A stretch of 64,000 bases of DNA from Candidatus Woesearchaeota archaeon (GCA_964573625.1 CAZNJU010000001.1:589879-653878); one strand, 5' to 3'. Counted from the stretch's first letter, positions 12,082 through 64,000 are shown. Made by a program: numbers and translations. The notes: generated from the sequence alone by a model not told the origin.

Positions 12082-12426
12082 ATGGTTCAAGCAAACACAG
12101 GATTAGAAAAAAATGTAACAGCTCGTGTCTGGGGAATACCTGTAGAACTTATTCCAGAACAGACAGAAATATCCCGATACGGATTCGGAGGTCAACGCCT
12201 AAAGTATATCGGTGACGAGTTTGCCGACGGAGGAAGCAGACGTTCAATATTTCTCTCTCACGATCAAGACGGAAGTCAACCATATATTTCACGAGTAGTT
12301 ATTCCACACCAAAACGATGCTCACGGAACGTCACTCGCGATGACTGCGGCCGTAGAGACAAGAACTCTTCAAAGTATGCCTGGATACGAACAGCTGTTCA
12401 ACATATTATTCAAAAACAAAAGATGA
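12082..12426 (+). CDS. Hypothetical protein between groES and groEL
   Basis: 114-aa ORF abutting the groES stop and overlapping the groEL start. Confidence 0.65.
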
Positions 12427-32173: not shown

Positions 32174-35100
32174 ATGCAAAAAAGACCCAATTTTAATGAA
32201 CTATGTGAGGAAAAGGCAAGGGCCGGGGATAAACATGCCTCGTATATACTGAGAAGAGCGAGTGATACTGGAGGTGTTCCGTTACAGATCGAAATAGATT
32301 ATGAACGAAAAAGGCTTGAATCATACGAGCGTGCAGGTATAGAAACGTATAAAGTAGTGACAAAAACAGGCGAACAGACAAGAACACTCGGAGACTTACG
32401 AGCCCAAATAGGAAGAGCAGAAGAACTAGGGATACTTGATGGTAGCCTTTCTATGAGCTATGAAGGAGCAAAAAGAGTATATGAAAAAGTACGCGATATT
32501 ATATCAAAAAAAAATTCTAGTGATAGAAAAGGTTCTTCAGGCAAATTCCTTGAAATATTAGATGCTTTTGATCCCGCCCGAGATAGCGATCTTATTGCTA
32601 CAGGGGCTTTTGTCCTTGATCCACAAGTACGAAAATATGTTGATGGGAGATTAGAAGGATTGTATAAGGCAGTGTTAAGCGTGGGTTCGCATAAACGTTC
32701 AGGTTATACTCTACCTGTTCATGAGTCAAGACCCTCCTTTGCCGGCGGAGACGTAGTCTCTCCACGATTAAAGGCATTGTTAGAGTCCATTCCGGAAGCT
32801 AAAACAACTGAAGAAGAGGAGAATCAAAAAGCACTTAAACTACTTATACACAAAAGAGCAGAAAGAGATGTCTTCCCTCTCTTTAAGCATGATGTTGGCA
32901 GTGCATTTTCACAATTAGAGAAGCTACTAGGTAAAGAGAAAAATCTGCATCTTCGTCAAGAATATGAATCATTAAGAGATGTCTATCAAAAATATCTGGA
33001 ATTTGAAGTACCTGGTGTAAACCCTAATTTTGTCGATCCAACTACGGGGCAGAAAGATGTTTTGCCTTCGTTACATCAAAGGATTGGTATTTATGGGATT
33101 GTTAAAAGTTTAGATGATAACGGACGATTTGGAATTTGGGACGGCGGTGGGACAGGTAAAACAGCACAAGTTATTTTGGCACAGCCGCTTATAGAGCGCA
33201 AGTTAGCGGAGCGAGGACATATTTTTAACAGAGCAGTGATTGTGGGGCCCAATCCTTCAAAAAGAGCATGGAAGAAAGGATTGATAGGAAGCGATACTGA
33301 GAGATATTTAGCTGAGCCGCAAAATGTGTTTGTTATTAACGGTGAACAAAAGACTGACGAATTACTTGACAGGATGGGCAAGGCTAAGTGGATCGTAACT
33401 AATTATGAGCAACTTATAACGCGCGTTAATGGAGACGACAGACTTCTTGTAGATGTATTGACTGATATGGGTGTGGACTTAGTAGCATTTGATGAGGCGC
33501 AGCACATTAAAGGACAGAGAAATATGACTCGTGGCGGAAGCACAAGAGAGCCAACGTTAACTCAAAGCGCCGCTGCAAGACAATTAGCTCTTCAAGCAAA
33601 ATGTTTTGTTCCATTATCGGCAACTCCTATTTCAAATGGTCTTGATGATTTTGCAGTCCTCTATCATCTTATTAACCCTGAAGAACTTAAAGACCCAAAG
33701 AAATTTCAGGATAAAATTAAAGATTCTCCAAGAAAACTTTACACGTTCTTTCATGAAAAGTCAGTGCGTAGAACGGCAGAAGACATTAATGAGGAATTAG
33801 ATTGGTCAGAAGATATTTGTGAGGTCGAGTTAGACGAAGTTCAAAGGCAAATTTACGATCATATTGTTACACATCGTCCTGGAAATTGGATGACTCAAGC
33901 TCGAAAAGCGCTTACTGATCCGCGACTTGTCGATCCTGAAATTTTAAAGAATGTAGGAGTTTTAGGACAAATTACCCACAGAAATTCGGCTAAGTATAAG
34001 GCATTGGAGGAATTGTTAAAATCTGATGATGGGCCCATAGCGCGCGGAGAGAAATTCGTGGTGTTTTCTATGTTAATGGAAGGGGTAACTCAGAAAGGAA
34101 ATGAAAATCTTCAGAGGAGATATGCTGAAATGGGAATAGCACAAGAATATGATAAATTACAGCTTGACCTATCAATAGATTCATTATTAAGTCAAGCACT
34201 GAAAGACGAATATCAGCGAGACTTTAAAATAGGAGTAATTGATGGTACGGTAGACGCTTCTAAGGAAAGAGATAAGGTGGTCGAAGGCCTTGCTGGTGAA
34301 TTATCAGGTATTGTATGCACAACAAAAACCGGCGGAGAAAGTTTAGACTTTACAGCAGCTAATTGGATGTATTTCTTAGATAAAGACTTTAAACCAGACA
34401 CAGAAGAGCAAGCTATTTGGAGAGAATTAAGACGGGGACAAAAAAGAAAAGTTAATATTTGGCATCTAGAAGCCCTAGATACACTTGAAGAAAAGCTTGA
34501 TGTATATGTAGAAAAGAAAAGACTTACAGCAAAAATAGCAATGGATGGTCATCCTCCTACGAAAGAAGAATGGGAGCTGCTTGATGACACAGAAGGTAAG
34601 CGCCTAGGAGACCTAATAAAAAGAGGGCTAGGTGGAAAGTCTATTAACGTATATGATGCGCCCATCACAGAGATCTCTGACTTTGAAGCAAAGAAAAGAA
34701 CTGGTAGAGGGGGCAAGCATTATGGAACAGGTGTTTTCGATTATACTACTACTGAAGCTCAAGAAATTATGCGTCTTATTGGTCAAAAGCCACAAGAATG
34801 CTGGTTCGATCCTAACTTTGTAGAGCTTTACATGAAAGCACTTCCTAACTTATCTACACATGTTACTAATCTTGCCCGTGTTGCAGATTTAGTAGCTCGA
34901 GCAAAACGAGGAGAGATAGAGTTCCCAGGAAACGTTCTTGCTGAAGCTTCCGGGCCATCGATGCTCTATCGTGCTTACCAAGAATTAAGACCTCTTATAG
35001 AAAAACGAAGACTTGCAGTGCCTAAAGTCACCGATAGAGATTTATCTCCGATTATGTTGGCTGAAGGAACCAATCCGAACAAGATTCTCGGCGATATGAC

Positions 35101-35725
35101 TGGAAAAGATAGCACGTTACAGGCAGAAAGTTTTGATATGGTAGACAACGGATCTCTTGCTCTATTAAGAAATCCTGCAGAGGTTTATCAATCATTACTC
35201 GAATCTCATCGTATCTTGAAGCCAGAAGGGTTACTTGAACTTACTCTTAAGAATAAACGATTTTTGGACAGCGGTGAAGATGACAAAATTATTGGATTTC
35301 ATGCAGGATTAGAACGACTCGGATTTAAGGTTCTAACAGGAAAGAATGAAGGATTTGCCATAAGCAAAAATCTTACGAGAAGACTCAAAGATATGCATGG
35401 TGAACATTTTGCAGAAGCGTATGCTGCTAAATTGGCTAATACTTATCTGCTCGTAGCACAAAAAATGGACAATCCTGTTCACGTCCACTCTGATAATTTC
35501 TGGTTTGAAACCATATATCCCGAAGCAGAAGAAGATAAGGCTCATGAGCAAACCCTTCAAGGACCTTCCTCGCTATCATCTTTAAAGGTGAGGAGCAAAG
35601 GAGCGAAAATAAAGAGAGAACCAAGAGCAAAAGTTACCGAAACGAACGATTTCATTCATTTAGCGGATAGCAGCGGAAATGTTCATTCTGTGAGAAAAAA
35701 ACAAGGAGAAGATAAAAATGAGTAA
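32174..35725 (+). CDS. SNF2-family helicase/translocase fused to a class I SAM methyltransferase-like domain
   Basis: GGTGKT, DEAQ, SATP, GGESLDF, EEQAIWRE..RGQ. C-terminal VLAEASGP, DRDLS..ML, ESFDMV, HRILKPEG. Confidence 0.85.
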   Translation: MQKRPNFNELCEEKARAGDKHASYILRRASDTGGVPLQIEIDYERKRLESYERAGIETYKVVTKTGEQTRTLGDLRAQIGRAEELGILDGSLSMSYEGAKRVYEKVRDIISKKNSSDRKGSSGKFLEILDAFDPARDSDLIATGAFVLDPQVRKYVDGRLEGLYKAVLSVGSHKRSGYTLPVHESRPSFAGGDVVSPRLKALLESIPEAKTTEEEENQKALKLLIHKRAERDVFPLFKHDVGSAFSQLEKLLGKEKNLHLRQEYESLRDVYQKYLEFEVPGVNPNFVDPTTGQKDVLPSLHQRIGIYGIVKSLDDNGRFGIWDGGGTGKTAQVILAQPLIERKLAERGHIFNRAVIVGPNPSKRAWKKGLIGSDTERYLAEPQNVFVINGEQKTDELLDRMGKAKWIVTNYEQLITRVNGDDRLLVDVLTDMGVDLVAFDEAQHIKGQRNMTRGGSTREPTLTQSAAARQLALQAKCFVPLSATPISNGLDDFAVLYHLINPEELKDPKKFQDKIKDSPRKLYTFFHEKSVRRTAEDINEELDWSEDICEVELDEVQRQIYDHIVTHRPGNWMTQARKALTDPRLVDPEILKNVGVLGQITHRNSAKYKALEELLKSDDGPIARGEKFVVFSMLMEGVTQKGNENLQRRYAEMGIAQEYDKLQLDLSIDSLLSQALKDEYQRDFKIGVIDGTVDASKERDKVVEGLAGELSGIVCTTKTGGESLDFTAANWMYFLDKDFKPDTEEQAIWRELRRGQKRKVNIWHLEALDTLEEKLDVYVEKKRLTAKIAMDGHPPTKEEWELLDDTEGKRLGDLIKRGLGGKSINVYDAPITEISDFEAKKRTGRGGKHYGTGVFDYTTTEAQEIMRLIGQKPQECWFDPNFVELYMKALPNLSTHVTNLARVADLVARAKRGEIEFPGNVLAEASGPSMLYRAYQELRPLIEKRRLAVPKVTDRDLSPIMLAEGTNPNKILGDMTGKDSTLQAESFDMVDNGSLALLRNPAEVYQSLLESHRILKPEGLLELTLKNKRFLDSGEDDKIIGFHAGLERLGFKVLTGKNEGFAISKNLTRRLKDMHGEHFAEAYAAKLANTYLLVAQKMDNPVHVHSDNFWFETIYPEAEEDKAHEQTLQGPSSLSSLKVRSKGAKIKREPRAKVTETNDFIHLADSSGNVHSVRKKQGEDKNE

Positions 35726-50197: not shown

Positions 50198-50569
50198 CTA
50201 CTTCACAAACTCAACACCAACCATCTTCTCAAACTGCCGATCACCTGTTAAAAACTTCAGATTATACTTAAGCGCAGTCACATACCCAATTGAGTCGGCA
50301 TATGATATCTTCAATTTCTTATTGCGATACCGAAAGCGAGAGGCTTCGATAGCGATCTCTTTACTTATTTCTATAAGGCTAAACGACAGTTGATTGAGAA
50401 ACGCCTCAGCCGTCTTTTCATTATGTAATTGCAGTAAATGATAGTACACTTCGGCAACATTCAACGTATTCGTGACGATCGCGTCTCCATCGTACCCTAA
50501 ATAATTCTGATTACCATTCAAAATCTCAATAATCGCATACGAATCAAAGAAATAACCAGAACTACTCAT
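50198..50569 (-). CDS. vapC: VapC-like PIN toxin
   Basis: FFDSYAIIE, LNVAEV, ISYADS, FLTGD..F. Confidence 0.88.
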   Translation of the reverse strand: MSSSGYFFDSYAIIEILNGNQNYLGYDGDAIVTNTLNVAEVYYHLLQLHNEKTAEAFLNQLSFSLIEISKEIAIEASRFRYRNKKLKISYADSIGYVTALKYNLKFLTGDRQFEKMVGVEFVK

Positions 50570-50810
50570 TGTCAGGCCAGAAGTCTCTGTCTATCTCGCG
50601 CATCACTTCTTCCGTAGACTTACGAGACTTACCAAGTTTCATCGACTGTGCAAACGCAAATACATCTCCTACCGTAGACACTTTACCTTTATTGACCATG
50701 AGTTCCACTTCAGAGCCTTCGCTCAGGTCTTGCTGCTCTACCACATGCTTAGGGAGAATAACTCCAAGTGAGTTTCCCCATCGTTTGACTCGAGCTATTA
50801 CTGGTTTCAT
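50562..50810 (-). CDS. vapB: AbrB/MazE-type antitoxin (VapB)
   Basis: VKRWGNSLGVILPK..EGSEVEL; overlaps vapC. Start refined. Confidence 0.88.
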   Translation of the reverse strand: MKPVIARVKRWGNSLGVILPKHVVEQQDLSEGSEVELMVNKGKVSTVGDVFAFAQSMKLGKSRKSTEEVMREIDRDFWPDNE

Positions 50811-50865
50811 ATAGTTATACTTGTATAACTTATATTTAAATGTTTCGACCTCGACTATTTCTACG

Positions 50866-52068
50866 TTAGGGAGAGACTGCATGTTCCTTAAGCTTACGAA
50901 CCAGAACTTCGTACACCTCCTTATCATTAATGAGCATATCGAGCATACTATTGATTCCTTTCGTTTCCGCTTCCTTGACTAATATCTCTTGCGCTGCCTC
51001 TTTGTGTAATACGAAGCCACAAACATTACAGAACTTGTTAGTTGTAGGATTAGACTGATGACAGCGTAAGCATGAAAGAGGCTTAAGCTTTGGTTCAATA
51101 ATCGTTTGTGCAGTCGCAATGTTATTCGCACGCAAGATTGCATCATCTGCATCTCTGCCCGACATGTGCACGTAAATGCCTGCCATCTTAGATCCCTGTG
51201 TCCACCCAAAGTAATGCTTCATAGCTGCTTCACTCATAATCTTAGCAAGATGTGTGGCTCTGCTATGTCTAAACAAGTGTGCATGCACATGTTTCTTAAT
51301 GCCTGCGCGTGATGCAGCCAGTTTAATCACATCTACCATACGAGTATAGGTCAAAAAACCGTTAGAGCTTTGCGGATTCCACCAGACCGGTGCTTCAGGA
51401 TCGAAATTCTTCGGATGCACATTAATCCATTGTTGTAAATACGGCGCACTATTAATCACTAATATCTTGCGCATACCGGTTTTACCATTGACAGTAAGGC
51501 GAGCACCATGTTGTTCAAACGAAATATGCTTAATACGCATGGTTCCAATCTCAGAAATCCTGCATCCCGATTCAGCAAGCGACGCAATCAAAGCCTTATT
51601 GCGGAAGGTATCGCACGCTTGTATCATTTGAAGTGATTCTTCTTCAGTTAGCAGCTCTTCAGGCAATTTTCGAGTGCTTTCATGCAGCGCAATAGAAATC
51701 CACTTGACTTCCAACGGATAAACGCCTTTATCAGTGATGCCTCGCATGTACCGATAGAGCTTACGAGTCATAACTTTGAAGCACTTCTTACTTTCAGGAG
51801 CTAAATCTGTCTGTTCAAGATCAGCAATAACGCGTCGTAAGTCCTTCTCAGTCGCATCTCCAAACGGCATGCCCAACATCTTGCTTAATTTTCGTACATC
51901 AAGCAAATACCGTCCAATCTTAGCGACACCAATCCCTTCACTTAGAAGATAATCCTTGAACGCGATAGCCGTTTCTTTATTAATGGGGCTCATATCTATA
52001 GAATTCTTAATGAGTGCAATCTGGCGATCCAGCTGCCCTTTGTAATCGTGTAAGTCTATCGTCATCAT
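50866..52068 (-). CDS. Tyrosine recombinase/integrase with a C-terminal zinc ribbon
   Basis: ESGCRISE, GKTG, HLFRHSR, FGW, IYVH; CLRC..CNVC. Start refined. Confidence 0.92.
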   Translation of the reverse strand: MMTIDLHDYKGQLDRQIALIKNSIDMSPINKETAIAFKDYLLSEGIGVAKIGRYLLDVRKLSKMLGMPFGDATEKDLRRVIADLEQTDLAPESKKCFKVMTRKLYRYMRGITDKGVYPLEVKWISIALHESTRKLPEELLTEEESLQMIQACDTFRNKALIASLAESGCRISEIGTMRIKHISFEQHGARLTVNGKTGMRKILVINSAPYLQQWINVHPKNFDPEAPVWWNPQSSNGFLTYTRMVDVIKLAASRAGIKKHVHAHLFRHSRATHLAKIMSEAAMKHYFGWTQGSKMAGIYVHMSGRDADDAILRANNIATAQTIIEPKLKPLSCLRCHQSNPTTNKFCNVCGFVLHKEAAQEILVKEAETKGINSMLDMLINDKEVYEVLVRKLKEHAVSP

Positions 52069-52140
52069 CGTGTCATGTGATAACGCATCCTCGGTGCTTT
52101 TTATAGCACGATCATCAGACGGGCGTGCAACCAACTCTAA

Positions 52141-52184
52141 ACGCCCGAACCGGGAATCGGACCCGGGTCTCCTGCGCGACAGCG
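52141..52184 (-). pseudogene. 3' half of a tRNA-Asp(GTC): att-site remnant
   Basis: Minus strand CTGTCGC-GCAGG-AGAC-CCGGG-TCCGATT-CCCGG-TTCGGGC-G. No matching 5' half seen; T-loop is degenerate. Confidence 0.8.
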
Positions 52185-53426: not shown

Positions 53427-54626
53427 CTATAAATTAATTTTAATAACGCTGGAGCGATTAAGATACGCACGAGTGCGTGGGAAAAAAGATCCGGATTTGA
53501 GATACAATGTCGTAATCTGTGACATGCGTGACTCGCTAAGGGATGGTTCTGCTTCATCACCTGCTTGTGCCAACGTAATTCCATCCATAATAACGCGACG
53601 TATGGGATCACGATAGCGCTCAGGTATAGCGCGTAAATCTCGTTCGAAACAATTCATCAAGTCATTATTCTCACATTCTACAACAGGGTTATCCTTTAAA
53701 GGCGCGGTAACTCTCTCAGATAATTGATAGTCGTTTCTTGAATGCCCATTGCGTTGCTTTCGATCTGCATCAAGACTTGCGATACTTCCACCGCGTATCC
53801 ACACATCACTATAGAAATGTTCAAAGGAATCAATCGGAAGTGCTCGTCGTTCCCACTCAGCATACAAATCTTCTTTAGAGGGAACAATTCCTTGAGATTC
53901 CTTGAACGTATGAGCAAATTTGGAAAATTCATCAAGACGCGTTCGATCTAAACGGGGTAAATGATCGCTTGCACGAATGCCATCTAATATGGCTCCGCGT
54001 ATACGGGGAGCGCAATACGTTTCAAATCGCACATTGCATGCAGGATCATATTTTTCTATCGCATCAAGCAGACCAACATTTCCTTCTCCTATCAAATCCT
54101 CCAAATCAACAAAATCAGGCAATTTAGTGTGCATTCGCTGAGCCACGTCACGTACGATTTTCTGTCCTTCAACCGCAAGTTTACTCCGATAGAGTTGATT
54201 ATGCGTTGTTGCATAGAGGTTTGCCAGATTAGTAAGTCCTTTAGCACCCGTCTCTGGAACACAAATATGAACATCCCCAACGTGAATGTACAAGTCAGGA
54301 ACACCTTCAATCGTATGTTCTTCAACGATTCTTCTTCCATCACGTTCAAGATTAAGTAATCCGTCAAAAGGCGCACCTACCTGCTCAGCAAGGAGATACG
54401 CTGAGACGAGAGGTGTTTGTTCAGGAGGTATATTTGACTGCCGCGATAGTAAATTGGCGACAAGCGCCCCTAAATATCCTTTTTTCTTATCTTGATGTGC
54501 TTGAAAAGAATCATCACGTAACGTCTGCATGAAGGTTCCGTTTAATCCTCGAGCTTTCAAGTCCGCTTCCGAAAGAATCGCGAGTAAGTCTTGCTCAGCT
54601 ATCTCACGATTTGGTCGTTCGCTCAT
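53427..54626 (-). CDS. Sigma-70 family (FliA/WhiG-like) protein with an N-terminal extension
   Basis: Region 2 DLEDLIGEGNVGLLDAIEKYDP..RFETYCAPRIRGAILD; region 4 GITLAQAG..LSESRMSQI. Start refined to MSERP. Confidence 0.85.
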   Translation of the reverse strand: MSERPNREIAEQDLLAILSEADLKARGLNGTFMQTLRDDSFQAHQDKKKGYLGALVANLLSRQSNIPPEQTPLVSAYLLAEQVGAPFDGLLNLERDGRRIVEEHTIEGVPDLYIHVGDVHICVPETGAKGLTNLANLYATTHNQLYRSKLAVEGQKIVRDVAQRMHTKLPDFVDLEDLIGEGNVGLLDAIEKYDPACNVRFETYCAPRIRGAILDGIRASDHLPRLDRTRLDEFSKFAHTFKESQGIVPSKEDLYAEWERRALPIDSFEHFYSDVWIRGGSIASLDADRKQRNGHSRNDYQLSERVTAPLKDNPVVECENNDLMNCFERDLRAIPERYRDPIRRVIMDGITLAQAGDEAEPSLSESRMSQITTLYLKSGSFFPRTRAYLNRSSVIKINL

Positions 54627-56638
54627 AAGCTTCTTTCCGTCCAACTTGATAGACTCTAATAAAATCACCAAACCTAAACCTCACAGGGGTTGATTTATTA
54701 TTAAGAGCAATATTCAATCCTCGTTGCTTGGCAAACCCTAACACTTTGGTGACTTCGTCAATTTTAATGCCGCTTGCTCGTGCAAGTTCAGGAATCGTAT
54801 AGGCTTGATTATATGCCTCAGTAAACGCTTGTTCAGGGTTAGCATCGGATCGCCGCATGTCTACTGCAGGAGAGCGTAACAAAGAATACACGCGATCAAT
54901 ACAGGTCTGTTCAACAACGTAAGCATGATGATCTGTTTTTTCTCCTGCTCGATACACAAACGGTTCAACTTTTTTCCCTACTTGATTAAGAATACCATGG
55001 AATCGTTCCATTACTGTCGTAAGATTAGCAGCTCCACGGGATGAACCATTGGCTTCAGCGAGTTTGTCATGAACCACTTCATAAAGTGTGGTGAATCCAT
55101 GCATCATTTTCTGTGCTTCCAAAAAGTCCTTCCCCAGCACTCCTTCCTCTTGTACATGGAATGCACTTCCTTCAGCCAAATACCGAATAGCACCAAGACC
55201 TTTCTCTGATAAACGTCCGAGATCAGTAAGTTGATACATCACCATCGGATGAATCTCACTTTTCAACGTTTCTCGCTCAGAAGTTGCTTGTAATTGTTCC
55301 CAGAGCTCTCCGCGTCGTTTAAGGAAATCTTGCAACGGGCTTTTTCCGCGCTCAGTATCTTCGAGTGCGAGTGCATCGATAACTGCTCCAATGACGGCTT
55401 GTTCATATCGCGGAACGGTAGTTACGGATGTAGGAACTAACGAAGGATGCTTATTATTGAGATAAATTGCATTTGTATCAGGATAGTGTCTGCCAGGAAT
55501 GATGGCATCAATATCATCTGAAAATTCTACTGATGTATTCTTATCAATACCCTCGACTTTGGCGCGTACTAATTGTGAGAGTGCTTTTTGTGTAATACGA
55601 TTGCGCTGTCCTTGTACTTTGGTAACCATAGAACGCTCGCTCGTATCGCGAGTATATTGTTCAACGACTCCGACGGCCTTTGCAAGAGTCTTTCCGAGTT
55701 CTACAACGCCCGGATGATCTTCTCTAAAGCGTCCACGATCAAAGAGAATTGCTTCCTCGAGACTGTCTGCATGGACAATGCCAATAATGCGGTCTCGCAT
55801 CGATAATCGATCTTGTCTCAAGAACGTTTTAGGATCTCCAATCTTGCGACCATTGACATACACATGTACTCCCGTCATGAGTGCTTTTTTGTTAGTTAAA
55901 TATAAATTACCTCTAATAGAACCCATGTGTTTGCCTTCGGTATCCAGTTTGAAGATGGTGGCACTTTCAATTTGTTTGGATTGTACTGCTTCTCCATTAA
56001 CGTAGACTTTGAAATCAGGAAGCAACGGAAGATCCCATTGAATACGGCGTTTTAATTCAGCAAGCGAGAAATTATCTCCTTCAGCAAATTTAAGGCCCTT
56101 AAGTAATAAACTGGTTCCATGCGCGTTGGGATCGGTTGAAACTTCTCTTCCCATAATAGGCTTATCAGAAGATACGCGCTCTTCAAGCTGTTCATGAATA
56201 ATGGTTTTTCTACCCTCTTGCTCAGTCGTTAACTTATAGCCGTTACATAACGAACGTAAAAGAATCGTTGCAACTCCAAACTTTCCAATGCGCATTCGTC
56301 CCGCCGCGCTAATCGGTTCTTTGATTTTAGGGCTGTCGCCTAATCGATAAAATGATTCAAGACCTTTTTCGGCCGTCATGCCTGAACCATTATCTTTGAG
56401 CCGCAGTGCATCCAATTCAGGACGGTAGTCGATATCAACGCGTGTTGCATCAGCATCGTACGCATTTGCGATTAATTCTTCTAATGCAGGAATAGTACCC
56501 GTTACAACGAGATTGGCAATAAGATCAGGAGCATTGCTTCCGAGATTACGCGTAAATGTTACGTCCCTTTCGCGAGGGGGGGGGGGCGATCAGGGTTTTT
56601 GAATTACTTTGAGCCGCGGAAACCGTAGATTTTGCCAT
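54604..56638 (-). CDS. GHKL (MORC/HATPase_c_3-like) ATPase, frameshifted at a C11 tract near its 5' end
   Basis: ELIANAYDADA, DNGSGM and GKFGVA lie in one frame; the ATG at 56638 joins it only with C10 or C13 (677 aa with C10). Confidence 0.82.
56576..56586 (+). repeat. G11 homopolymer (candidate phase-variation tract)
   Basis: Direct read; lies after codon 17 of the GHKL gene. Confidence 0.9.
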
Positions 56639-56910
56639 GCTAAAAGGTCTTCTTAATGGTTTTTAAGCATTTCTACAATGCTTCTTCTAAACTTTATTCT
56701 TAGTGCGTTGCTCTCACAACTATAATAATTCCAGATAATAGGAAAGCAATGATTGTAACGATATAGATCGAGGGATCGTTAAATCCAGCGAATAGGTTAA
56801 TCAATCCCGTAATTAAACTTACAAAAAAGACAATCCACAGAAGAACATCTAATTTTTTCATGGACACTTAAGAAAGAGTAACTTTATAAATTTCGCCTCT
56901 CTCGAATTAT

Positions 56911-57408
56911 ATGCCTCTCCTGCAACCTCGGAAGATACGCGGTTCGATGGATGATGGGTATTACACTCCTAATGATACGACTGATGCTTTTGCAACAACT
57001 GTGTATCGAGATATTGTTAGCGGACTACCTTTTACGTTTAGGGAAGAGATACGTGATGGAGTGCTTCTAACGAGAACTAAATTTGGTGTTTCAGCAGATA
57101 CGAGTCTTGAATTTTGGATGACGACTTCAGATCGTCGAGAGCAGTTCCCGCTATTTGGAGATGTATGTTTTCACCAGCCTAAATCAGCTATGGATGGGCA
57201 TGCATATCCGTACACGTTTTCAAAAGGCGAACGTTTCGCAGAAATGCTTAGATTAAAAGAACCGCCGTTCTATAGAATTGCTCATTTTACAGATACGCCT
57301 CTTGTCATTACTTCAGAAGCTTCCGATACTGTTCCTCTCGTTATACCCCAACCGCAATCAATGGTTAGATTACATCAGAAATTAAAAGCCCGCGGCGTCA
57401 TGCAATAA
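56911..57408 (+). CDS. Hypothetical protein
   Basis: 165-aa ORF with an upstream TTTATAAA. Confidence 0.6.
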   Translation: MPLLQPRKIRGSMDDGYYTPNDTTDAFATTVYRDIVSGLPFTFREEIRDGVLLTRTKFGVSADTSLEFWMTTSDRREQFPLFGDVCFHQPKSAMDGHAYPYTFSKGERFAEMLRLKEPPFYRIAHFTDTPLVITSEASDTVPLVIPQPQSMVRLHQKLKARGVMQ

Positions 57409-57481: not shown

Positions 57482-58219
57482 ATGGCCTTAAACCTCAATG
57501 ATCAGGCAGTACGATTGCCGTATGAAGAATTCTACGGAGAAGTACGAGCACAAATGCCAAAGCTCTTGGCGGACAAGCGTATGCCTCTTTCGGTAGCCGG
57601 TCTTATGGAACGACGCCTCAATTCTACTCAAACCGCTGAATGGAGAGATAATTATTTTGGCATGGGCGATGCCATTGCGTACAAAGGAGATGCTTTCAAA
57701 GTTGTTGCTGATGCACCTCTCTTGAGAGAACTAACTGCAAACACTCGGTTGAAAGCAGGCGCGGTACTGCTTGCCGATGGATTATATGAAACATTTGACG
57801 GCACTGAATTCTCACGTAAGGATTTGTCTAAAGTAATGGGTCGAGATTTGACTGCTGCCGATGCTAAGAAACATCCCGTCTGGCAAGCGCTTGCTCGCGG
57901 TGATCAAGGATTACTTGATGCTTATACGGATATGACGTTTGCTGATACAAAAGCTCGTTTTGGTTACACTGAAAACATGGGTGTTTATCTCGATGACTCG
58001 AAAGAACCACATGCACGGGCTTGGTTTGTCGGCAGGGCGTACTACAGGTCGCAGGCCAGTGGCGACTGTGATCTTGACTACAGGAGCGGTCGCTTGGTCG
58101 GGGTAGCGCCGGAGGCGCTCAGTGCGCCGGGTAAGGCTATTGTAATGCCTTCCCTTGAAACTGCATTGACTGTTGTGAACCAACATATAGGAAACAAATT
58201 GAAATTGCAACAGCAATAA
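57482..58219 (+). CDS. DGR target (variable) protein, probably CLec-fold
   Basis: Contains the VR (RAWFVGRAYYRSQASGDCDLDYRSGRLVGV) followed by 37 more codons. The fold is inferred from other DGR targets. Confidence 0.9.
   Translation: MALNLNDQAVRLPYEEFYGEVRAQMPKLLADKRMPLSVAGLMERRLNSTQTAEWRDNYFGMGDAIAYKGDAFKVVADAPLLRELTANTRLKAGAVLLADGLYETFDGTEFSRKDLSKVMGRDLTAADAKKHPVWQALARGDQGLLDAYTDMTFADTKARFGYTENMGVYLDDSKEPHARAWFVGRAYYRSQASGDCDLDYRSGRLVGVAPEALSAPGKAIVMPSLETALTVVNQHIGNKLKLQQQ
58017..58107 (+). repeat. DGR variable region (VR)
   Basis: Matches 58943-59032 except 13 substitutions, all at TR adenines, and one 1-nt indel. Confidence 0.95.
58105..58119 (+). promoter_or_regulatory. DGR target-recognition hairpin AGCGCC-GGA-GGCGCT
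   Basis: Perfect 6-bp stem with a GRA loop immediately after the VR. Confidence 0.8.
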
Positions 58220-58738
58220 ATGAATTCTAACGAAGAAGCACTTAGATTATTTTATCTAGACCATCTCTTTACTAAGTCAACAAAAAATGTAGAACCTATC
58301 TCTTTGGAATTCCTTTCTTCTACTTTCAATGAACTATCTGAAAGAGTTTTTTCTATGTCTTTTGAAGACATCTTAAAACAGATTCGTCTTTCTGAGACTT
58401 TAACTTTTTGGTCGTGTGCTTATTTGAACAAAAATTGTACTCAGATTGAACTTCCTATAGAAAAAGCATGTGCGGATGATAGACATATAGCCATAGATAG
58501 CCATCTTGTTTCTCAAGGGACTCTTTTATCAAGCCTCTTGGAAAAAGCATATCTCTTATCTGAATTGCGTGAAAGGATTGATTTTCCTAAAAAGTTTTCT
58601 CCATTTTTCTTAGATGAAGCATTCCCCATAGTACGAAAGTACGGAGAGTTATATGAGGTTTTAATGGGTAATCATCGAGTCATGGCTGCAATTGAACTTG
58701 GTCTAGAAAAAATTAAAGCGATATGTTTAGAAGAATAA
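58220..58738 (+). CDS. ParB/Srx-like domain protein within the DGR
   Basis: C-terminal PIVRKYGELYEVLMGNHRVMAAIELG motif; abuts the target stop codon. Confidence 0.65.
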   Translation: MNSNEEALRLFYLDHLFTKSTKNVEPISLEFLSSTFNELSERVFSMSFEDILKQIRLSETLTFWSCAYLNKNCTQIELPIEKACADDRHIAIDSHLVSQGTLLSSLLEKAYLLSELRERIDFPKKFSPFFLDEAFPIVRKYGELYEVLMGNHRVMAAIELGLEKIKAICLEE

Positions 58739-58812
58739 TCTTTTTTCAACATACATAATTGAGTATCATCTATCTTTTATAGCTCATTTCTAAACTCTTC
58801 TATCCTAGCTAA

Positions 58813-59034
58813 CTATGCAACAAGGATGCATAGAGTATCTGGGGCTACACGTCCTTTCATGACGGCGCTTCGGCGTCATAAAATACAGCTGCAACAGAAA
58901 TGAAGCGGCAGTGAAGGGGTATCCATGAAAGGGCTATTCCTGGGGCTTGGTTTGTCAACAGGGCGAACAACAGGTCGCAGGCCAATGGCAACAATAATCT
59001 TGACAACAGGAACGGTCGCTTGGTCGAATAGCCC
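58813..59034 (+). ncRNA. Putative DGR template RNA: structured leader plus TR
   Basis: Stems at 58813-58819/58827-58833, 58851-58861/58924-58934 and 58931-58939/59026-59034; a cUUCGg hairpin near 58870. Boundaries are approximate. Confidence 0.65.
58943..59032 (+). repeat. DGR template repeat (TR)
   Basis: AAC/AAT-rich copy of the VR. Confidence 0.95.
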
Positions 59035-60520
59035 ATGATGCTGCTAGGATATCATACTATGTACGAACAACTGTGCTCAGAAGAAAATCTTCTTAGTGCA
59101 TTTTACAAAGCGCGGAAAGGCAAGACACAGCGACATTATGTGCAAGTATTTGAAAAAGAGCTAGATAAAAATCTAAAGCAGCTAGAACAGGAGTTACGTA
59201 CTCAGACCTATCAACCTAAGCCCCTAACAACATTTGTTATTCGTGATCCAAAGACGCGTAAAATTTCTAAATCTCGATTCAGAGATCGAGTAGTACATCA
59301 CGCACTCATTAATGTTATCGGCCCCGTTCTACAAAAACGCTTTATTTATGATTCACATGCGAATCAGGTTGGTAAAGGAACGTTAAAAGCAGTTCAACGT
59401 TTCGAGCTCTTTAAACGAAAAGTGTCTCGTAATAATACTCGTCCCTGTTACGTGCTTAAATCAGACATTAGGCATTATTTTGAAGAAGTCGATCATGCTA
59501 TTCTTCTCAAGCTTATTAGTAAATATGTTCGAGACGAGCGCGTGATGTGGCTCATTCAACAGATTCTCGCTAACAATGTACATCTTTCCTTTAATGCGAA
59601 CTTTAGGACGCAGAGAGAGAGAGAGTACTAACAAGGGAATGCCCTTAGGCAATCATACTTCACAGTTCTTTGCGAATGTCTATCTGAATGAACTAGATCA
59701 ATTTGCAAAACACGTTCTTAAAGCACCGTATTACTTACGATACGTTGACGATTTTGCCATTTTATCTAACTCGTATTCAATGCTTCTACAGTACAAGGAA
59801 CGCATCAATGTGTTTCTAAAAGAGCATCTTAAACTTGAATTGCATCCTCAAAAATCTCATATTCTCTCGTTACATTCGGGCGTTTCTTTTCTTGGGTATC
59901 GCATTTTTCCGCATCACAAACTATTACGAAAACGTAACGCGCGTGCGTTTGAACGAAAGATGGGAAAATTGAGAGTTTTATACCACGAAAAGCAAGTTTC
60001 ACGAGATCAAGTGGTTGATCGACTTCAAGGATGGTTGGCTTATGCCGAACACGCCGATACGTACACTTATCGAAAAGAAATATTACGAAACTTTAATCGG
60101 TTTTTTCCCTTTAAAATAGAAAAAGCACTGTTGTCCAAAAGAGCGAGAAATTTCTATAAAAAAGTAGCTGCAAGTAAAATACAAGGAAGCGTTCAAAAAA
60201 CGCTCGACCTAGCAAGAAAAAAGATGTCAGTCACAGAAATAGCTACGCTTCGTAAAATAAAAGAAGGAACGGTCTGGGAACATTATGCAGAATTAATTGA
60301 ATACGGATGGTTGTCTATTTGGTCTATTCTTCCGCGTAAAACTATTGTAACGGTTTTACCCTATATACGAAACTCAAGTGATACTCTCACAACAATAAAG
60401 AGTCGGTTAAAAGTAAGCGGCATATCTTATGATAGTATTATGTGCGTTCGCGCCCATATACGATACAAGGAAAAAATAAAACGATGGTCAAGACGATATC
60501 ACAAAAATTATTTGGGATAA
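59035..60520 (+). CDS. DGR reverse transcriptase, split by a frameshift at (AG)7, with a C-terminal HTH
   Basis: Frame 1: RDPKTRKI, FRDRVVHHA, KSDIRHYF. Frame 2: GMPLGNHTSQFFANVYL, RYVDDF, FLGY. (AG)8 gives one 495-aa ORF. Confidence 0.93.
59612..59625 (+). repeat. (AG)7 dinucleotide tract at the RT frameshift
   Basis: Direct read CAGAGAGAGAGAGAGTACTAA. Confidence 0.92.
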
Positions 60521-60592: not shown

Positions 60593-61609
60593 ATGAAAAA
60601 TCCACAAGGAATACCGTTAGGATTAGACCCAGAAGCGAAATCAGCTTCTAAAAACTTGCCCGCATTTCTTACTCCGCCTAAGGGTTCAAAGGCTTATCAT
60701 GGATTTCCACTTGTAAAGGACATAAGTGAGGACGGATTTACGTATGGAATGATTACCCAATTTGAGTCAAACACTAAAGAAGGCTACGACTCTGGAGATG
60801 CCTATGTAGAGGCTCCAGACGGCTCACGTGCAGGCATCGTGTGGGGAAGAGAAACCGCCTTTTCTCATAATATCATTACAAAAATAGAGAAAAATCGCTG
60901 GGGAGTTTATTACTTTGCAATCCCGTTTAAAATAAAAACGAAAGATGACATGAGAAAGGCATTCGATTTGATGCTCCCTTACCTAAAAGAATATTACCGC
61001 ATATCTAAGGCACACATAACGTGGAAAGATAATTTCAGAAGACTCAACAAAGAATTACATTCAATGCAGCGAGGGCCTGTACCCGATAACGAAATTGAAA
61101 AAGATATTTACATAGAACTTGATCAAATAACCTCCTATCTTTATTCTCGCCTCGGCTTGAAAGCACGATGGATAGGACTGATTAGATATCTCCCAAGCTT
61201 AAATGTGACTCTCCTCAAAAGAGATTTGTTAAACGTGAATCAATTGATCGAACAAAGAGGATGGTCTCACTTTAGGAAAAATAGGTTATTGCTTAAGGAG
61301 TATCTCCTGGTAACAGAAATAGTTGAAGTTGTCAAGACCGTTAAAGGAAAAGGAGTTTTCGAGTCTCAAGGAATAAAGAGCCGTAGCCAATTAGGACTTG
61401 AGGAAGAAGAGATTTACAGCAATCATATTATGGGGCTAGTTAAAGTAGCTACTGAAAGAAAAATGCCTATTGAGAAGTTCACCTTAGATAAAGAACTGAC
61501 TCATCATCTTTTCGAATTGTCAAAAGCTGAATGTAGAAAAGATACAAAAACAACTAAAATTTTATTGAAAAAAGTTCAGGATAGGATAAAGGTTCTTTGC
61601 AAAAAGTAG
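60593..61609 (+). CDS. Hypothetical two-domain protein
   Basis: N-terminal YHGFP..GDAYVEAPDGSRAGIVW motif of an uncharacterised family. Confidence 0.7.
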   Translation: MKNPQGIPLGLDPEAKSASKNLPAFLTPPKGSKAYHGFPLVKDISEDGFTYGMITQFESNTKEGYDSGDAYVEAPDGSRAGIVWGRETAFSHNIITKIEKNRWGVYYFAIPFKIKTKDDMRKAFDLMLPYLKEYYRISKAHITWKDNFRRLNKELHSMQRGPVPDNEIEKDIYIELDQITSYLYSRLGLKARWIGLIRYLPSLNVTLLKRDLLNVNQLIEQRGWSHFRKNRLLLKEYLLVTEIVEVVKTVKGKGVFESQGIKSRSQLGLEEEEIYSNHIMGLVKVATERKMPIEKFTLDKELTHHLFELSKAECRKDTKTTKILLKKVQDRIKVLCKK

Positions 61610-61676
61610 TCGTTTTAAGACGTAGAATATTTTGAGAGGTAAGATTTAAAAGTCTATAAAAACAAGGTATTTTGTT

Positions 61677-61748
61677 GCTCGCTTCGTATAGTGGTTAGTA
61701 CACGACCCTGTCGCGGTCGGAACGCGGGTTCGATTCCCGCAGCGGGCG
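61677..61748 (+). tRNA. tRNA-Asp(GTC)
   Basis: GCTCGCT...CGACC-CTGTCGC-GGTCG...GCGGG-TTCGATT-CCCGC-AGCGGGC G73. Confidence 0.95.
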
Positions 61749-61767
61749 ATTTTATCGTCGATAAATA

Positions 61768-61947
61768 CTAACTTAACTTCTTATTAATTTCAGTCAGAAG
61801 CAATTCAATCTTGGCAAGATGTGACTGCCCTTTCAGTTTCTGCCTGCATAATTCTCCTAATGAAGTTCCACTGTCTAGCGCTTGTTTTCGTAATGACTCT
61901 ATAACGTCTGTTTCTATTCTAAGATGGATTTGAAAGTTTTTTCTCAT
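61768..61947 (-). CDS. Small RHH/CopG-like protein (not in the ORF track)
   Basis: MRKNFQIHLRIETDVIESLRKQALDSGTSLGELCRQKL, 59 aa. Confidence 0.6.
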   Translation of the reverse strand: MRKNFQIHLRIETDVIESLRKQALDSGTSLGELCRQKLKGQSHLAKIELLLTEINKKLS

Positions 61948-62030
61948 CAGGATTTGTTACAATCTTCTTTTCTATTTTGAGCCGGTCAATTATCCTTCGC
62001 AATTCTTCAATAATGGTATCAGGATCAACT

Positions 62031-62594
62031 TTATTGTATTCCATGCACACTCCTGTTGAATTTCCTCGTCTCGTTCCCCCAGCAATCCCATCCTTTGACC
62101 GTTTGCCGTGCAAAAAGCTCAATACGCGGAAGATCTCCGAGCAATTCAACAATCTGATCGCGTATTTCGTCAGGCTTTCGACTGTGTTCACGCAGTGGAG
62201 AAAGGACGACCTGTCGGACTTTATTCGATTTTCGCTTCAGATTTCCTTTTAGTCCTAAGAGACAAACTTCTGCGTTAGCTCGCGTCCAGTTTCCCATACC
62301 CATAAAAGGTCGACCGTTATTCTTGTTCGTCTTAATCCATGTAAAGGCTACCGTAATATACCTAAATCCCCAACTCTTTAGCGTTTCAATACACTCAGGG
62401 AGGATCGGATAGGCTGCCCACATAAAGAGTGCACAATCCTCGTCAGCAATTTGTTGAGCGGGAAATTGCTTAATGATTTCAATCGGAATAGTAGGATATT
62501 TGACTTTCGTGCTATACTTCCACGGAGGATCAGCATAGATAATATTGTACTTCTTACGAAGATTGACCTTCCACGTAACGGTTTCTTTCGTCAT
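62031..62594 (-). CDS. MT-A70 family adenine methyltransferase
   Basis: IIYADPPW, CALFMW, SWGFRY..FTW.K, EHSRKP, IELFAR, WGNE. Confidence 0.93.
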   Translation of the reverse strand: MTKETVTWKVNLRKKYNIIYADPPWKYSTKVKYPTIPIEIIKQFPAQQIADEDCALFMWAAYPILPECIETLKSWGFRYITVAFTWIKTNKNNGRPFMGMGNWTRANAEVCLLGLKGNLKRKSNKVRQVVLSPLREHSRKPDEIRDQIVELLGDLPRIELFARQTVKGWDCWGNETRKFNRSVHGIQ

Positions 62595-62716
62595 GCTAAC
62601 TACTATCCAGAATTGCTTAAAACAAATCGGGGAAAAGTTAGTTATCTAACCAGTAGTCCATTGAGTAGTCTGTTTTCTCCCCGACTCGTTTTATAATATG
62701 TTACGAATAGGTAATC

Positions 62717-62902
62717 ATGAAAGATTGCTGCTTGGTTTGTGACGTTGAACTCGGAAACTATGAAACTGATTTGTGCAGCACCTGTTTTGGCTTCTTTCAT
62801 AAAAAATACAAAAATAGACTCAAGAAAGGCTTGGGACGCTTCAGAAAACACAAAGCGTTCTTGAATACATGGCGATCAACTGAAAAGGAGGTGGAAGAAT
62901 GA
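62717..62902 (+). CDS. Small zinc-finger-like protein
   Basis: CLVC..CSTC; coupled to the pilin gene with a GGAGG RBS. Confidence 0.6.
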   Translation: MKDCCLVCDVELGNYETDLCSTCFGFFHKKYKNRLKKGLGRFRKHKAFLNTWRSTEKEVEE

Positions 62903-63228
62903 AACAGCACTTACTGGCTTTTATGGTTGTGGCAATCTTGCTTATTATGCCTCACGTTAGAGCAGATCCGTTCAATCAAACAATAACTCCTGAAGAACAG
63001 GCAACGTTTGACCATATTCTGGAGCCCGTGATGAAAGTGTACAATATGGTAAAATATATTGCGACCTTCATTGCCGTAATTATTCTGTTATTTGCGGGTA
63101 TTAGCTATATGGTAAGCGGTTCTGACCCTAAAAGACGGGAGAACGCAAAGAGCACGGTTATGTACGTTATTATTGGACTGATTGTGATCTGGGCAGCGCC
63201 ATTAGTGGTACAATTTATTGTAGGTTGA
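62899..63228 (+). CDS. TrbC/VirB2-like pilin, second copy
   Basis: 65/85 residues identical to 26612-26947 over the mature part (hand count). Confidence 0.82.
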   Translation: MKQHLLAFMVVAILLIMPHVRADPFNQTITPEEQATFDHILEPVMKVYNMVKYIATFIAVIILLFAGISYMVSGSDPKRRENAKSTVMYVIIGLIVIWAAPLVVQFIVG

Positions 63229-63229
63229 T

Positions 63230-63619
63230 ATGAATAAACTCCTTATAGCAGGGATAGTCGCGTGGAGTCTGGCTCTTGCGTGTGCGGAGCCAGCTCTCGC
63301 ATGCCCTTCCCGTATTTATTGCTCCAACTTTACTGATCCGATGAAGCGAACTGATTGTAATACCATCGTTTCGCAGCATTTTCCGTTTGAAGAACAACAT
63401 GAAATACTCTGTACCCTATGGGACTATGGGTACGAATGGCGGGGCTACGAACCGCCGCACTACCCTCCGTTAAACACGAGTCTTGTGTTATCGTATAAAG
63501 AAATAGATACGAGTCGGTTCCTCACCGCTATGAAAATAACTACTTTTATTGTATTCAATTATTTTCTTTATTGTTTTCTCACTCGCTCTTCCTTTACAAC
63601 GAGATGGCGTGCAGCTTAG
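63230..63619 (+). CDS. Membrane protein of the second pilin module
   Basis: Paralog of 26949-27338. Confidence 0.75.
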   Translation: MNKLLIAGIVAWSLALACAEPALACPSRIYCSNFTDPMKRTDCNTIVSQHFPFEEQHEILCTLWDYGYEWRGYEPPHYPPLNTSLVLSYKEIDTSRFLTAMKITTFIVFNYFLYCFLTRSSFTTRWRAA

Positions 63620-64000
63620 TTAATCTCGGCTCGTGTCTGCCGCAGATGTTCTTTGAGTTCGTACTCGGAATCATTAACGCACCGATTCAGCCGTTTCTGC
63701 AGCTCACGCTCCATTTGCTATCAGAACCAATCAATCTACACCTGTTCATGCACTTTTGGGCGATTATTGTGTACATGCTATCGATGTTCTACGCACTATT
63801 GCTCGTGTCTGCAGGGTTTAGCATGATGCTCGCAGGCCCCGATGTAGAAAAACGAGAGAAATCGAAAGAGTGGCTCAAAAACGTCGTGATTATGATTATT
63901 CTTGTGCAAGCATCGTTCTTTATTTATCAGCTTATCTTAGACCTAGCGGCAGCCATGACCTCTGCTACACTAACGCTTGTCGATGGTAATTTCTTCCTCA
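63604..64000 (+). CDS. VirB6-like polytopic membrane protein, second copy (truncated by the window end)
   Basis: MACSLVNLGSCLPQMFFEF..INAPIQPFLQLTL matches 27743-28552. Confidence 0.8.
   Translation, partial: MACSLVNLGSCLPQMFFEFVLGIINAPIQPFLQLTLHLLSEPINLHLFMHFWAIIVYMLSMFYALLLVSAGFSMMLAGPDVEKREKSKEWLKNVVIMIILVQASFFIYQLILDLAAAMTSATLTLVDGNFFL

Follow-up and report, generated by a model that had tools for sequence, protein, structure and literature searches.

Overlapping genes for a sigma-70-family protein and a GHKL ATPase in archaea, mostly DPANN, with a probable repeat-based switch

A stretch of 64,000 nucleotides (nt) from a Candidatus Woesearchaeota archaeon (GCA_964573625.1 CAZNJU010000001.1:589879-653878), referred to here as the window, contains at positions 53,427 to 56,638 a gene for an ATPase of the GHKL class followed by a gene for a protein of the sigma-70 family (the sigma-like protein). 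An earlier note on this DNA, made from the sequence alone, had described the two as an overlapping operon; both genes were confirmed at these positions on the minus strand with a 23-nt overlap, although the note had overlooked a frameshift at a run of 11 cytosines (C11) in the ATPase gene. The overlap of the ATPase stop and the sigma-like start implies that translation of the two genes would be coupled. Transcription initiation in archaea uses TBP and TFB. The features of the two genes and of the segment that carries them are collected in Table 1.

Table 1. Features of the ATPase and sigma-like genes and of the segment in which they lie, with positions counted from the first letter of the window
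Feature	Position	Strand	Remarks
Sigma-like gene	53427-54626	minus	ATG start; 399 amino acids (aa)
Family-specific N-terminal domain	54243..54626	minus	aa 1-128; best-conserved part; without recognised relatives
Sigma region 2	53967..54236	minus	aa 131-220; Pfam Sigma70_r2, WhiG/FliA alignment and structural model
Sigma region 3	53790..53954	minus	aa 225-279; alignment and structural model
Linker at the position of sigma region 3.2	53691..53789	minus	aa 280-312; disordered, poorly conserved, predicted local distance difference test (pLDDT) score ~30
Sigma region 4	53496..53687	minus	aa 314-377; helix-turn-helix (HTH) motif ...SESRMSQI...; Q370 conserved at >=90%
Family-specific C-terminal tail	53430..53495	minus	SGSFFxRTRAYL...VIxLKL
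GHKL ATPase gene	54604-56638	minus	ATG at 56638, stop at 54604-54606
ATPase gene body	54604..56575	minus	ATPase domain, beta-rich second domain, helical hairpins, C-terminal HTH modules
Bergerat-fold ATP-binding core	56182..56490	minus	PF13589 match; family-invariant motifs
First HTH module of ATPase	55138..55242	minus	C-terminal half; secondary structure of the model
Second HTH module of ATPase	54673..54840	minus	Near C-terminus; YTIPELARASGIKIDEVTKVLGFAKQRGL...
Gene overlap	54604..54626	minus	23 nt, ATPase stop and sigma-like start; purine-rich GGA/AGG stretch before ATG
TFB recognition element (BRE)/TATA-like box, GCTTAAAAACC	56658..56668	minus	21-31 nt upstream of ATPase ATG
ATPase start and first 17 codons, MAKSTVSAAQSNSKTLI...	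56587..56638	minus	Out of frame with gene body
C11 homopolymer (G11 on plus)	56576..56586	minus	+1 frameshift; candidate slipped-strand on/off switch
Tyrosine recombinase, 383 aa	52267..53418	plus	Convergent with the pair; PHROG integrase E=3e-13, XerA_Arch E=1e-11
tRNA-Asp 3' half, 41 nt	52142..52182	minus	att-like integration scar bounding the pair segment; same fragment in L001
Whole tRNA-Asp	61676-61749	inverted relative to the 41-nt fragment	Other boundary of the segment

The sigma-like gene is listed as an open reading frame (ORF) at 53427..54671 that opens at TTG and would encode 414 aa; the real start is the ATG at 54626, and the resulting 399-aa protein is identical to the database protein P0001. 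The protein matched Pfam Sigma70_r2 (PF04542) with E=5e-13 (49.1 bits against a cut-off of 24) and passed the sigma-70 superfamily model TIGR02937 (56.7 bits against a cut-off of 42.9). Residues 130-373 aligned with residues 28-263 of Streptomyces WhiG (PDB 6pfv, E=9e-26) and also with E. coli FliA, and regions 2, 3 and 4 are therefore all present. Regions 2 and 4 had been correctly recognised in the earlier note, which did not name region 3 and put the N-terminal part at ~150 aa, where ~130 aa was found. WhiG and FliA were the top-ranking NCBIfam models, and the cut-offs for these subfamilies were not reached (107 against 189.6 bits for TIGR02479; 119.5 against 343 bits for WhiG NF004935). 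The structural model, with a mean pLDDT of 77, matched sigma factors in the PDB by Foldseek, with WhiG, FliA and SigA first. The motifs of regions 2.2 and 2.3 and the HTH of region 4.2 are retained. Region 2.2 residues known from sigma-70 vary even among genuine FliA proteins, and a check of the residues that bind core polymerase was non-discriminating.

Bacterial sigma factors have no counterpart of the first 130 and the last 22 residues of the protein. The N-terminal domain is predicted to adopt an alpha/beta fold over residues 10-125 and gave no match in a Pfam search. A candidate relationship with the HepN toxin (PDB profile, E=0.18) was rejected because the predicted strands misfit the all-helical HEPN fold, and comparison of the domain with the HTH modules of the ATPase by hhalign gave probabilities of no more than 5%. 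Across 26 sigma-like proteins 18 positions were conserved at >=90%, and half of them (nine) lie in the N-terminal domain (L23, G27, D39, G53, N58, R62, A76, D111 and H120). The C-terminal tail was found in all family members and is absent from bacterial FliA. Between the window and the related locus L001 the rate of non-synonymous substitution (dN) was 0.45 in the linker, compared with ~0.12 elsewhere in the protein. An orthologue from a Woesearchaeota archaeon (L008) has lost region 2.4 and region 3, while the N-terminal domain, region 4 and the tail are kept. From the conservation of the N-terminal domain and these losses, selection therefore appears to be strongest on the parts of the protein that are not sigma-like.

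The ATPase matched HATPase_c_3 (PF13589; E=6e-12, 46.2 bits against a cut-off of 25), and its body has 86% protein identity to the intact 677-aa orthologue of L001. The motifs of the ATP site are an N-box (ELIANAYDADA), G1 (DNGSGM), a lid (YRLGDSPK) and G2 (GRxRIGKFGVA). In 25 ATPases of the family E54, N58, D61, D63, D82, G84, G86, G118, G121, T175 and the lid were invariant, as was an FDR motif (299-301), in which R301 could be a sensor of the gamma-phosphate like the catalytic Arg of the Hsp90 middle domain. The structural model (mean pLDDT 85) has an ATP-binding fold, then a beta-rich domain, two long helical hairpins and HTH units. The best structural matches by Foldseek were TRAP1, GRP94 and HtpG (E ~1e-13, template modelling (TM) scores 0.25-0.37), followed by GyrB and MORC2 (for MORC2 E ~1e-11, TM-scores 0.2-0.3). 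Similarity at the sequence level was confined to the ATPase core, where MORC2, MutL, PMS2 and HtpG were best, and the C-terminal half gave no match in a Pfam search. By these sequence and structural matches the protein belongs to the MORC/MutL/Hsp90 class of GHKL ATPases, in line with the earlier note, which had mentioned MORC-like GHKL ATPases. The two HTH modules are related to each other (hhalign probability 77%, E=2e-5), and the first appears to resemble an excisionase-type HTH. The N-terminus of the BbrUII/HgiDII restriction enzyme also resembles the GHKL core (68 bits, NCBIfam).

The order of ATPase gene and then sigma-like gene was found in 12 distinct archaeal loci, mostly in DPANN, so the co-occurrence of the two genes elsewhere, which the earlier note had asked about, is established. 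The genes overlap by 17-29 nt at 11 of the 12 loci (10 of the 11 complete loci besides the window). Close relatives of the sigma-like protein are few, with only three among 5.8 billion proteins (79, 50 and 42% identity), and all three have the ATPase gene upstream with an overlap of 23-29 nt; the next matches were bacterial FliA/WhiG proteins, at 33-36% identity over the sigma part. The intact L001 ATPase, used as a query, retrieved ~30 full-length relatives, of which the named ones belong to Nanoarchaeota, Woesearchaeota and Pacearchaeota, and most of the family ATPases in readable neighbourhoods precede a sigma-like protein of 343-411 aa. Linkage was tallied from a hidden Markov model (HMM) scan of 253 fetched loci and two further look-ups, and generic HATPase_c_3 genes, at ~230 loci, never had a sigma-like neighbour.

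When 1.84 billion representative proteins were searched exhaustively by HMM, ~27 clusters proved to carry the family N-terminal domain. A word-index profile search with the sigma family returned mostly bacterial FliA and one added sequence. At least three further family loci were found by a metagenome scan with the ATPase profile, and the same profile gave no full-length member among the matches listed from IMG/VR viral contigs. As far as these sequence searches extend, the family is rare and patchy. The ratio of non-synonymous to synonymous substitution (dN/dS) between the window and L001 was 0.10 for the sigma-like gene and 0.06 for the ATPase gene, values by which both genes are judged to be under purifying selection; the decay of the sigma-like gene that the earlier note had considered is not borne out.

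Some family members depart from the common arrangement. Protein P0307 (1550 aa) has several excisionase/MerR-type HTH (HTH_17) repeats, a family-type sigma module and a full RpoD-like sigma, and in P0343 (688 aa) the family N-terminal domain is flanked by two sigma modules. In the Woesearchaeota metagenome-assembled genome ARS74 (L011, 3040-4975) the ATPase gene is split at a tandem duplication (...GRTPLGRTPLG...) with no sigma gene after it, and this ATPase may be a decaying copy. Protein P0158 was considered as a fusion of ATPase and sigma and was not used, as the Pfam matches were below threshold (E=0.006 and 0.04) and hhalign against the sigma family was negative. The C-terminus of L176 is unrelated as well. 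The ATPase variant P0157 ends in a weak match to the PcrA/UvrD Tudor-like fold (E=0.001, below the cut-off), which is a hint only. In bacteria this fold binds RNA polymerase.

The 41 nt before the ATPase ATG are identical in the window and in L001, and six loci (L004, L007, L008, L009, L174 and L175) have (C/T)TTAAAAA boxes with similar spacing from the start codon. These boxes suggest a candidate archaeal promoter, from which we infer promoter activity and a leaderless or short-leader transcript. The ATG at 56638 opens a frame of 30 codons, and the segment that follows it matches the N-terminus of the intact L001 orthologue; the body of the ATPase is in another frame, so there is no continuous ORF. 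The two frames join at C11, where 10 or 13 cytosines would give an intact gene, and this tract is the only G/C run of >=7 in the window. The first canonical start in the frame of the body is a TTG at 56415, downstream of the N-box of the ATP site, and the allele in the window therefore cannot make a working ATPase and is off.

Repeat tracts at the same place were found in other members of the family. L001 and L002 have C9 and are in frame, whereas L092, like the window, has C11 and is out of frame. The assemblies of L005 and L006 come from the same groundwater site and share identical flanking sequence; they have (GA)19 and (GA)17, respectively, neither of which is in frame, and (GA)18 would restore the frame. 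In each case the repeat lies between the sole available start codon and a conserved N-terminal strap (R.xG.N). The gene callers used an internal Met that truncates the strap in L092, L005 and L006, and the sequence upstream still encodes the strap in frame. Three independent lineages have acquired repeats at this 5' position of the ATPase gene. Repeats of such size are uncommon: there were 15 in 2.35 Mb of fetched DNA (0.006 per kb), and the 217 kb of family loci contained only four, all at the 5' position of the ATPase gene. The difference between C9 (L001 and L002) and C11 (window) sits in an otherwise conserved region. The window has three simple repeats at the thresholds used. Two of them, C11 and (AG)7, are not A/T runs, and they mark the breaks in the only frameshifted genes of the window, those for the ATPase and for a nearby reverse transcriptase, respectively. 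The remaining simple repeat, an A9 run at 32506-32514, is near the 5' end of an SNF2 helicase gene and is in frame.

Long repeats are generally selected against, and their placement near the N-terminus is a recognised route of phase variation (PMC3315296). A repeat in the 5' coding region together with length variation that changes the frame is the probable signature of a phase-variable locus. The likeness to bacterial phase-variable loci is a long tract just past the start codon with a length that changes the frame between close relatives; the difference is that the present loci belong to archaea, chiefly of DPANN, for which few such switches are on record, and are known from assemblies. The presence of the tracts is no artefact, while sequencing error is possible for any single tract.

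The contig carries several archaeal marks, namely an intron-containing tRNA, a HAN nuclease, a triosephosphate isomerase of archaeal length (213 aa) and XerA-type recombinases, and the assemblies of L001 and L002 join the pair segment to the same host genes as in the window. These marks, the BRE/TATA-like box and the shared host junction identify the contig, on its sequence, as archaeal, and the chimera with bacterial DNA that the earlier note had held open was not found. A tRNA model match at 210-366 spans 157 nt, implying a long intron; ARAGORN made no call. Phosphatases of the PP2C type are parts of sigma partner-switching circuits in bacteria. A SpoIIE/PP2C phosphatase gene is present at 21982-22962, with no link found to the sigma-ATPase pair. 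A bacterial-type GroEL gene lies at 12423-14030 (799 bits); among archaea, Methanosarcina and many Woesearchaeota and Pacearchaeota are known to have GroEL (PMC8204110). This gene, the large number of orphan ORFs and the DPANN relatives of the ATPase and the sigma-like protein suggest that the host is probably DPANN-like.

The pair segment is 75% identical to that of L001, and the host genes to the left of ~24.0 kb are 93-95% identical. L001 also shares the inverted arrangement of whole tRNA-Asp and fragment, and in L003 a whole tRNA-Asp lies between the sigma gene and an integrase. The fragment in the window has more than three mismatches to the resident tRNA-Asp and is within one mismatch of the tRNA-Asp of L003. 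A simple attL/attR model of the segment was rejected, as the whole tRNA-Asp and the fragment are inverted, and the island is therefore more complex than one insertion. The 383-aa tyrosine recombinase has 70% protein identity to the L001 copy and adjoins the pair in both L001 and L002. To the left of the segment is a conjugation-type element (24010-52137) with a VirB4-like ATPase (28552-31506), the SNF2 helicase (32174-35725), a methylpurine glycosylase, a methyltransferase and a 422-aa integrase (50866-52134). A second conjugation-type element (61750-64000) has an MT-A70 gene (62031-62594) and TrbC-like pilin genes, the latter recognised by similarity to the pilin/MT-A70 region of L001. The arrangement suggests that tRNA-Asp is a hotspot at which elements have integrated in tandem in an archaeon.

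Several other genes were noted in the segment and its flanks. In the left-hand element a gene for a PIN (VapC-like) toxin overlaps a gene for a MazE/AbrB-type antitoxin at 50198-50927, beside the 422-aa integrase. Within 58803-60520 an RT-16 RNA (Rfam RF03019, 72 bits) is directly upstream of the reverse transcriptase gene, the product of which has a C-terminal HTH_40 and gave its best PADLOC matches to defence-type reverse transcriptases (UG17, UG4 and DRT). This gene is split into two ORFs exactly at (AG)7 (59612-59625), so that the island may hold a second gene switched by a repeat. An orphan ORF of 172 aa (58220-58738) has a C-terminal ParB-like motif, GNHRV... (PHROG, E=4e-5), and the ORFs at 56911-57408, 57482-58219 and 60593-61609 (338 aa) had no match in any library. 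The three orphan ORFs between 56911 and 58738, together with the RT-16 RNA and its reverse transcriptase, are variable cargo of the segment. An ORF of 55 aa with two hydrophobic helices (56700-56867), not conserved in L001, closely precedes the ATPase promoter box in the same orientation.

A precedent for a gene pair of this composition is the bacterial MZA defence system (NF041931, NF041932; PADLOC mza), in which MzaA is a sigma-70-family protein and MzaB a GHKL/MutL-like ATPase, accompanied by Z1 and AIPR proteins. The likeness lies in the occurrence of a sigma-70-family gene and a gene for an HATPase_c_3-class ATPase in a locus of non-housekeeping, conflict type. The differences are that there are two genes here and five in MZA, that the host is archaeal, that the sigma-like protein is 399 aa with an N-terminal domain of its own while MzaA is 726 aa, and that the sigma part is closer to FliA/WhiG (119 bits) than to MzaA. 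The mzaA gene has been reported as unusually rich in single-nucleotide polymorphisms and indels in metagenomes (bioRxiv 10.1101/2023.08.12.553040).

Genes of the sigma-70 class have also been reported in DPANN, especially in Woesearchaeota, with mis-binning excluded (Castelle et al. 2021, PMC8204110), and fam00359 of that report is probably the same gene set as the sigma-like family, or one that overlaps it. The ATPase partner, the N-terminal domain and C-terminal tail of the sigma-like protein and the probable repeat switch are additions to what was reported on those genes. A literature search found no paper that links the DPANN sigma genes to a GHKL partner or describes the archaeal two-gene family. 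The claim of an undescribed pair made in the earlier note is therefore to be narrowed to the archaeal two-gene family, because MZA already pairs a sigma-70-family protein with a GHKL ATPase and the DPANN sigma genes themselves were known. With MORC/paraMORC proteins and Hsp90 the ATPase shares an ATP-binding fold followed by a second domain and helical regions, and a patchy, laterally mobile distribution; it differs in that TM-scores are mostly 0.2-0.3 and the C-terminal half is without a Pfam match. The survey of MORC/paraMORC proteins by Iyer et al. 2008 (PMC2292703) describes no sigma partner, and the word 'sigma' is absent from it. No restriction-modification genes adjoin the sigma-ATPase pair.

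The explanation we tentatively favour, which falls somewhat short of being probable, is that the products of the two genes act together as a single ATP-gated DNA-binding complex, which repeat slippage turns on and off and which has a role in conflict or contingency. The ATPase would dimerise on binding ATP, like the MORC, MutL and Hsp90 clamps, and would hold DNA by its two C-terminal HTH modules. The sigma-derived partner would dock on the ATPase through its N-terminal domain and C-terminal tail and would contribute sequence recognition, with region 4 reading duplex DNA and region 2 an unwound strand. The earlier note had proposed such a use of the sigma domain, as a DNA-binding or melting module for the ATPase, and the proposal is plausible. 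Slippage at the repeat would leave some cells with the ATPase and others without it. The role of such a complex could be to silence or exclude particular foreign or mobile DNA, in analogy to bacterial MZA defence, and is probably not housekeeping transcription initiation. A role in conflict is supported by the tRNA-Asp integration hotspot with its recombinases, the PIN-MazE pair and the repeat-split reverse transcriptase, and also by the lower identity to L001 of the pair segment (75%) than of the flanking host genes (93-95%), the weak matches to the MzaA and MzaB models, the BbrUII/HgiDII-like GHKL domain and the patchy family. We infer the physical complex, the DNA clamping, the target and the biological role.

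A number of observations weigh against this explanation. The MzaA model gave 28.4 bits with the window protein and 57.9 with that of L009 against a cut-off of 800, the MzaB model gave 18.4 against 850, and no Z1 or AIPR genes were found among the neighbouring ORFs with PADLOC and NCBIfam; the pair is therefore not MZA, although its mode of action may be similar. A sigma partner is lacking at five ATPase loci that are divergent or variant (L011, L091, L093, L176 and L255), and the ATPase can therefore work alone. Most copies in DPANN lie amid housekeeping genes (EF-1alpha, a tRNA synthetase, TGT, Rad50/Mre11) with no obvious defence islands, and no effector domain such as a nuclease was recognisable in either protein by Pfam and PDB profile searches. 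Of five assemblies with a repeat, four are out of frame, coverage of the Hainich contigs is only 6-8x, and the differences in repeat length could in part be sequencing or assembly artefacts. The interaction of the two proteins, their DNA binding and the ATPase activity are themselves predictions from sequences and models.

A rather doubtful alternative, which survives best of those considered, is that the sigma-like protein serves the archaeal RNA polymerase as a transcription factor, contacting the conserved clamp coiled-coil or the flap and directing or modulating initiation at certain promoters, with the ATPase as its ATP-dependent controller, which would sequester it like an anti-sigma factor or load it, and slippage as the switch of a regulon. 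In the SpoIIAB-SigF and RsbW-SigB operons the GHKL gene lies directly upstream of a group-3 sigma gene, and the present pair has the same gene order in one operon. The ATPase differs from those anti-sigma kinases in being a 677-aa HATPase_c_3 protein with HTH modules, where theirs is a 150-aa HATPase_c_2 kinase; moreover, no STAS antagonist gene was found in any examined neighbourhood and no PP2C partner in the operon. The complete set of sigma regions 2, 3 and 4 with the retained 2.2/2.3 motifs and 4.2 HTH favours a polymerase factor, as do the housekeeping surroundings of many copies and, as a hint only, the sub-threshold Tudor-like end of P0157 (E=0.001). Set against these are the best conservation in the non-sigma N-terminal domain, the L008 protein, which has dispensed with region 2.4 and region 3 while holding on to the N-terminal domain, region 4 and tail, and a distribution that is rare and patchy for a basal factor. 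We know of no sigma factor that binds the archaeal polymerase, and an archaeal host is expected to have no core polymerase of bacterial type. The survey of Castelle et al. 2021 (PMC8204110) saw the DPANN sigma genes, found no anti-sigma factor and called the mechanism of control unclear, which leaves a place for the ATPase as controller. A more specific form of this alternative, in which a domesticated sigma directs its own class of promoters on the archaeal RNA polymerase, with the ATPase as anti-sigma factor or loader, and the whole is a stochastic, slippage-toggled DPANN 'phasevarion', is quite improbable; if true, it would amount to sigma-dependent transcription in archaea.

It is unlikely, to a slightly greater degree than for a polymerase factor, that the repeats are not switches at all, so that the frameshifts in the window, L092, L005 and L006 would be sequencing or assembly errors, or the repeats would encode a tolerated flexible N-terminal linker, and the operon would be constitutive. 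Errors arise easily in homopolymers of 11 and in dinucleotide runs of 34-38 nt, the coverage of the Hainich contigs is low, and the two frameshifted genes of the window both break at repeats, as error would also produce. Protein termini are known to tolerate repeats (PMC3315296). Such an account is opposed by the three independent origins of repeats at the same position and by the lack of any other long repeat in the 217 kb of family loci. Repeats of this length mutate fast even if an assembly is inexact, and the in-frame C9 of L001 and L002 and the out-of-frame C11 of the window differ within a region that is otherwise conserved.

The other proposal of the earlier note, that the sigma-like protein acts on bacterial RNA polymerase, whether once the element has moved into a bacterium or inside a bacterium that is the partner of the archaeon, is very improbable. 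It would agree with bacterial FliA/WhiG as the nearest relatives of the sigma part (33-36% identity) and with the conjugation-type genes near the pair in the window (VirB4, TrbC-like pilin and MT-A70); however, the promoter box is of archaeal type and conserved, in DPANN most copies sit in the chromosome away from transfer genes, an export signal was not seen, and the listed IMG/VR viral matches include no full-length member. The pair is moreover bounded by tRNA-Asp sequences and therefore appears to lie outside the flanking conjugative elements. That the pair is an artefact or debris, whether from a chimeric contig or as decaying horizontally acquired genes without function, is scarcely credible: the ATPase is frameshifted in the window and a split copy without sigma partner exists in L011, but other assemblies have the same host junction, the 12 loci are in archaeal contexts, dN/dS is 0.06-0.10 and the catalytic motifs are invariant.

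A conserved, selected and complete sigma-70-family protein in archaea is a long-standing oddity, and the 2021 report left it without a partner or a means of control. These data add a dedicated GHKL ATPase partner with predicted DNA-binding modules, a probable control device based on repeats, and MZA as a functional precedent, and the three additions make the question testable with two proteins. The pair varies the known combination of a sigma protein with a GHKL ATPase, probably has a switch based on repeats, and occurs in a domain of life for which no sigma factors would be expected. If it is a defence or exclusion module, sigma-plus-GHKL immunity would be extended to archaea in a minimal form; if the sigma-like protein communicates with the archaeal polymerase, the textbook division between sigma and TBP/TFB would change. 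In either case, repeat-driven switching in DPANN would represent bet-hedging of a kind that is little documented, in organisms whose genomes are tiny.

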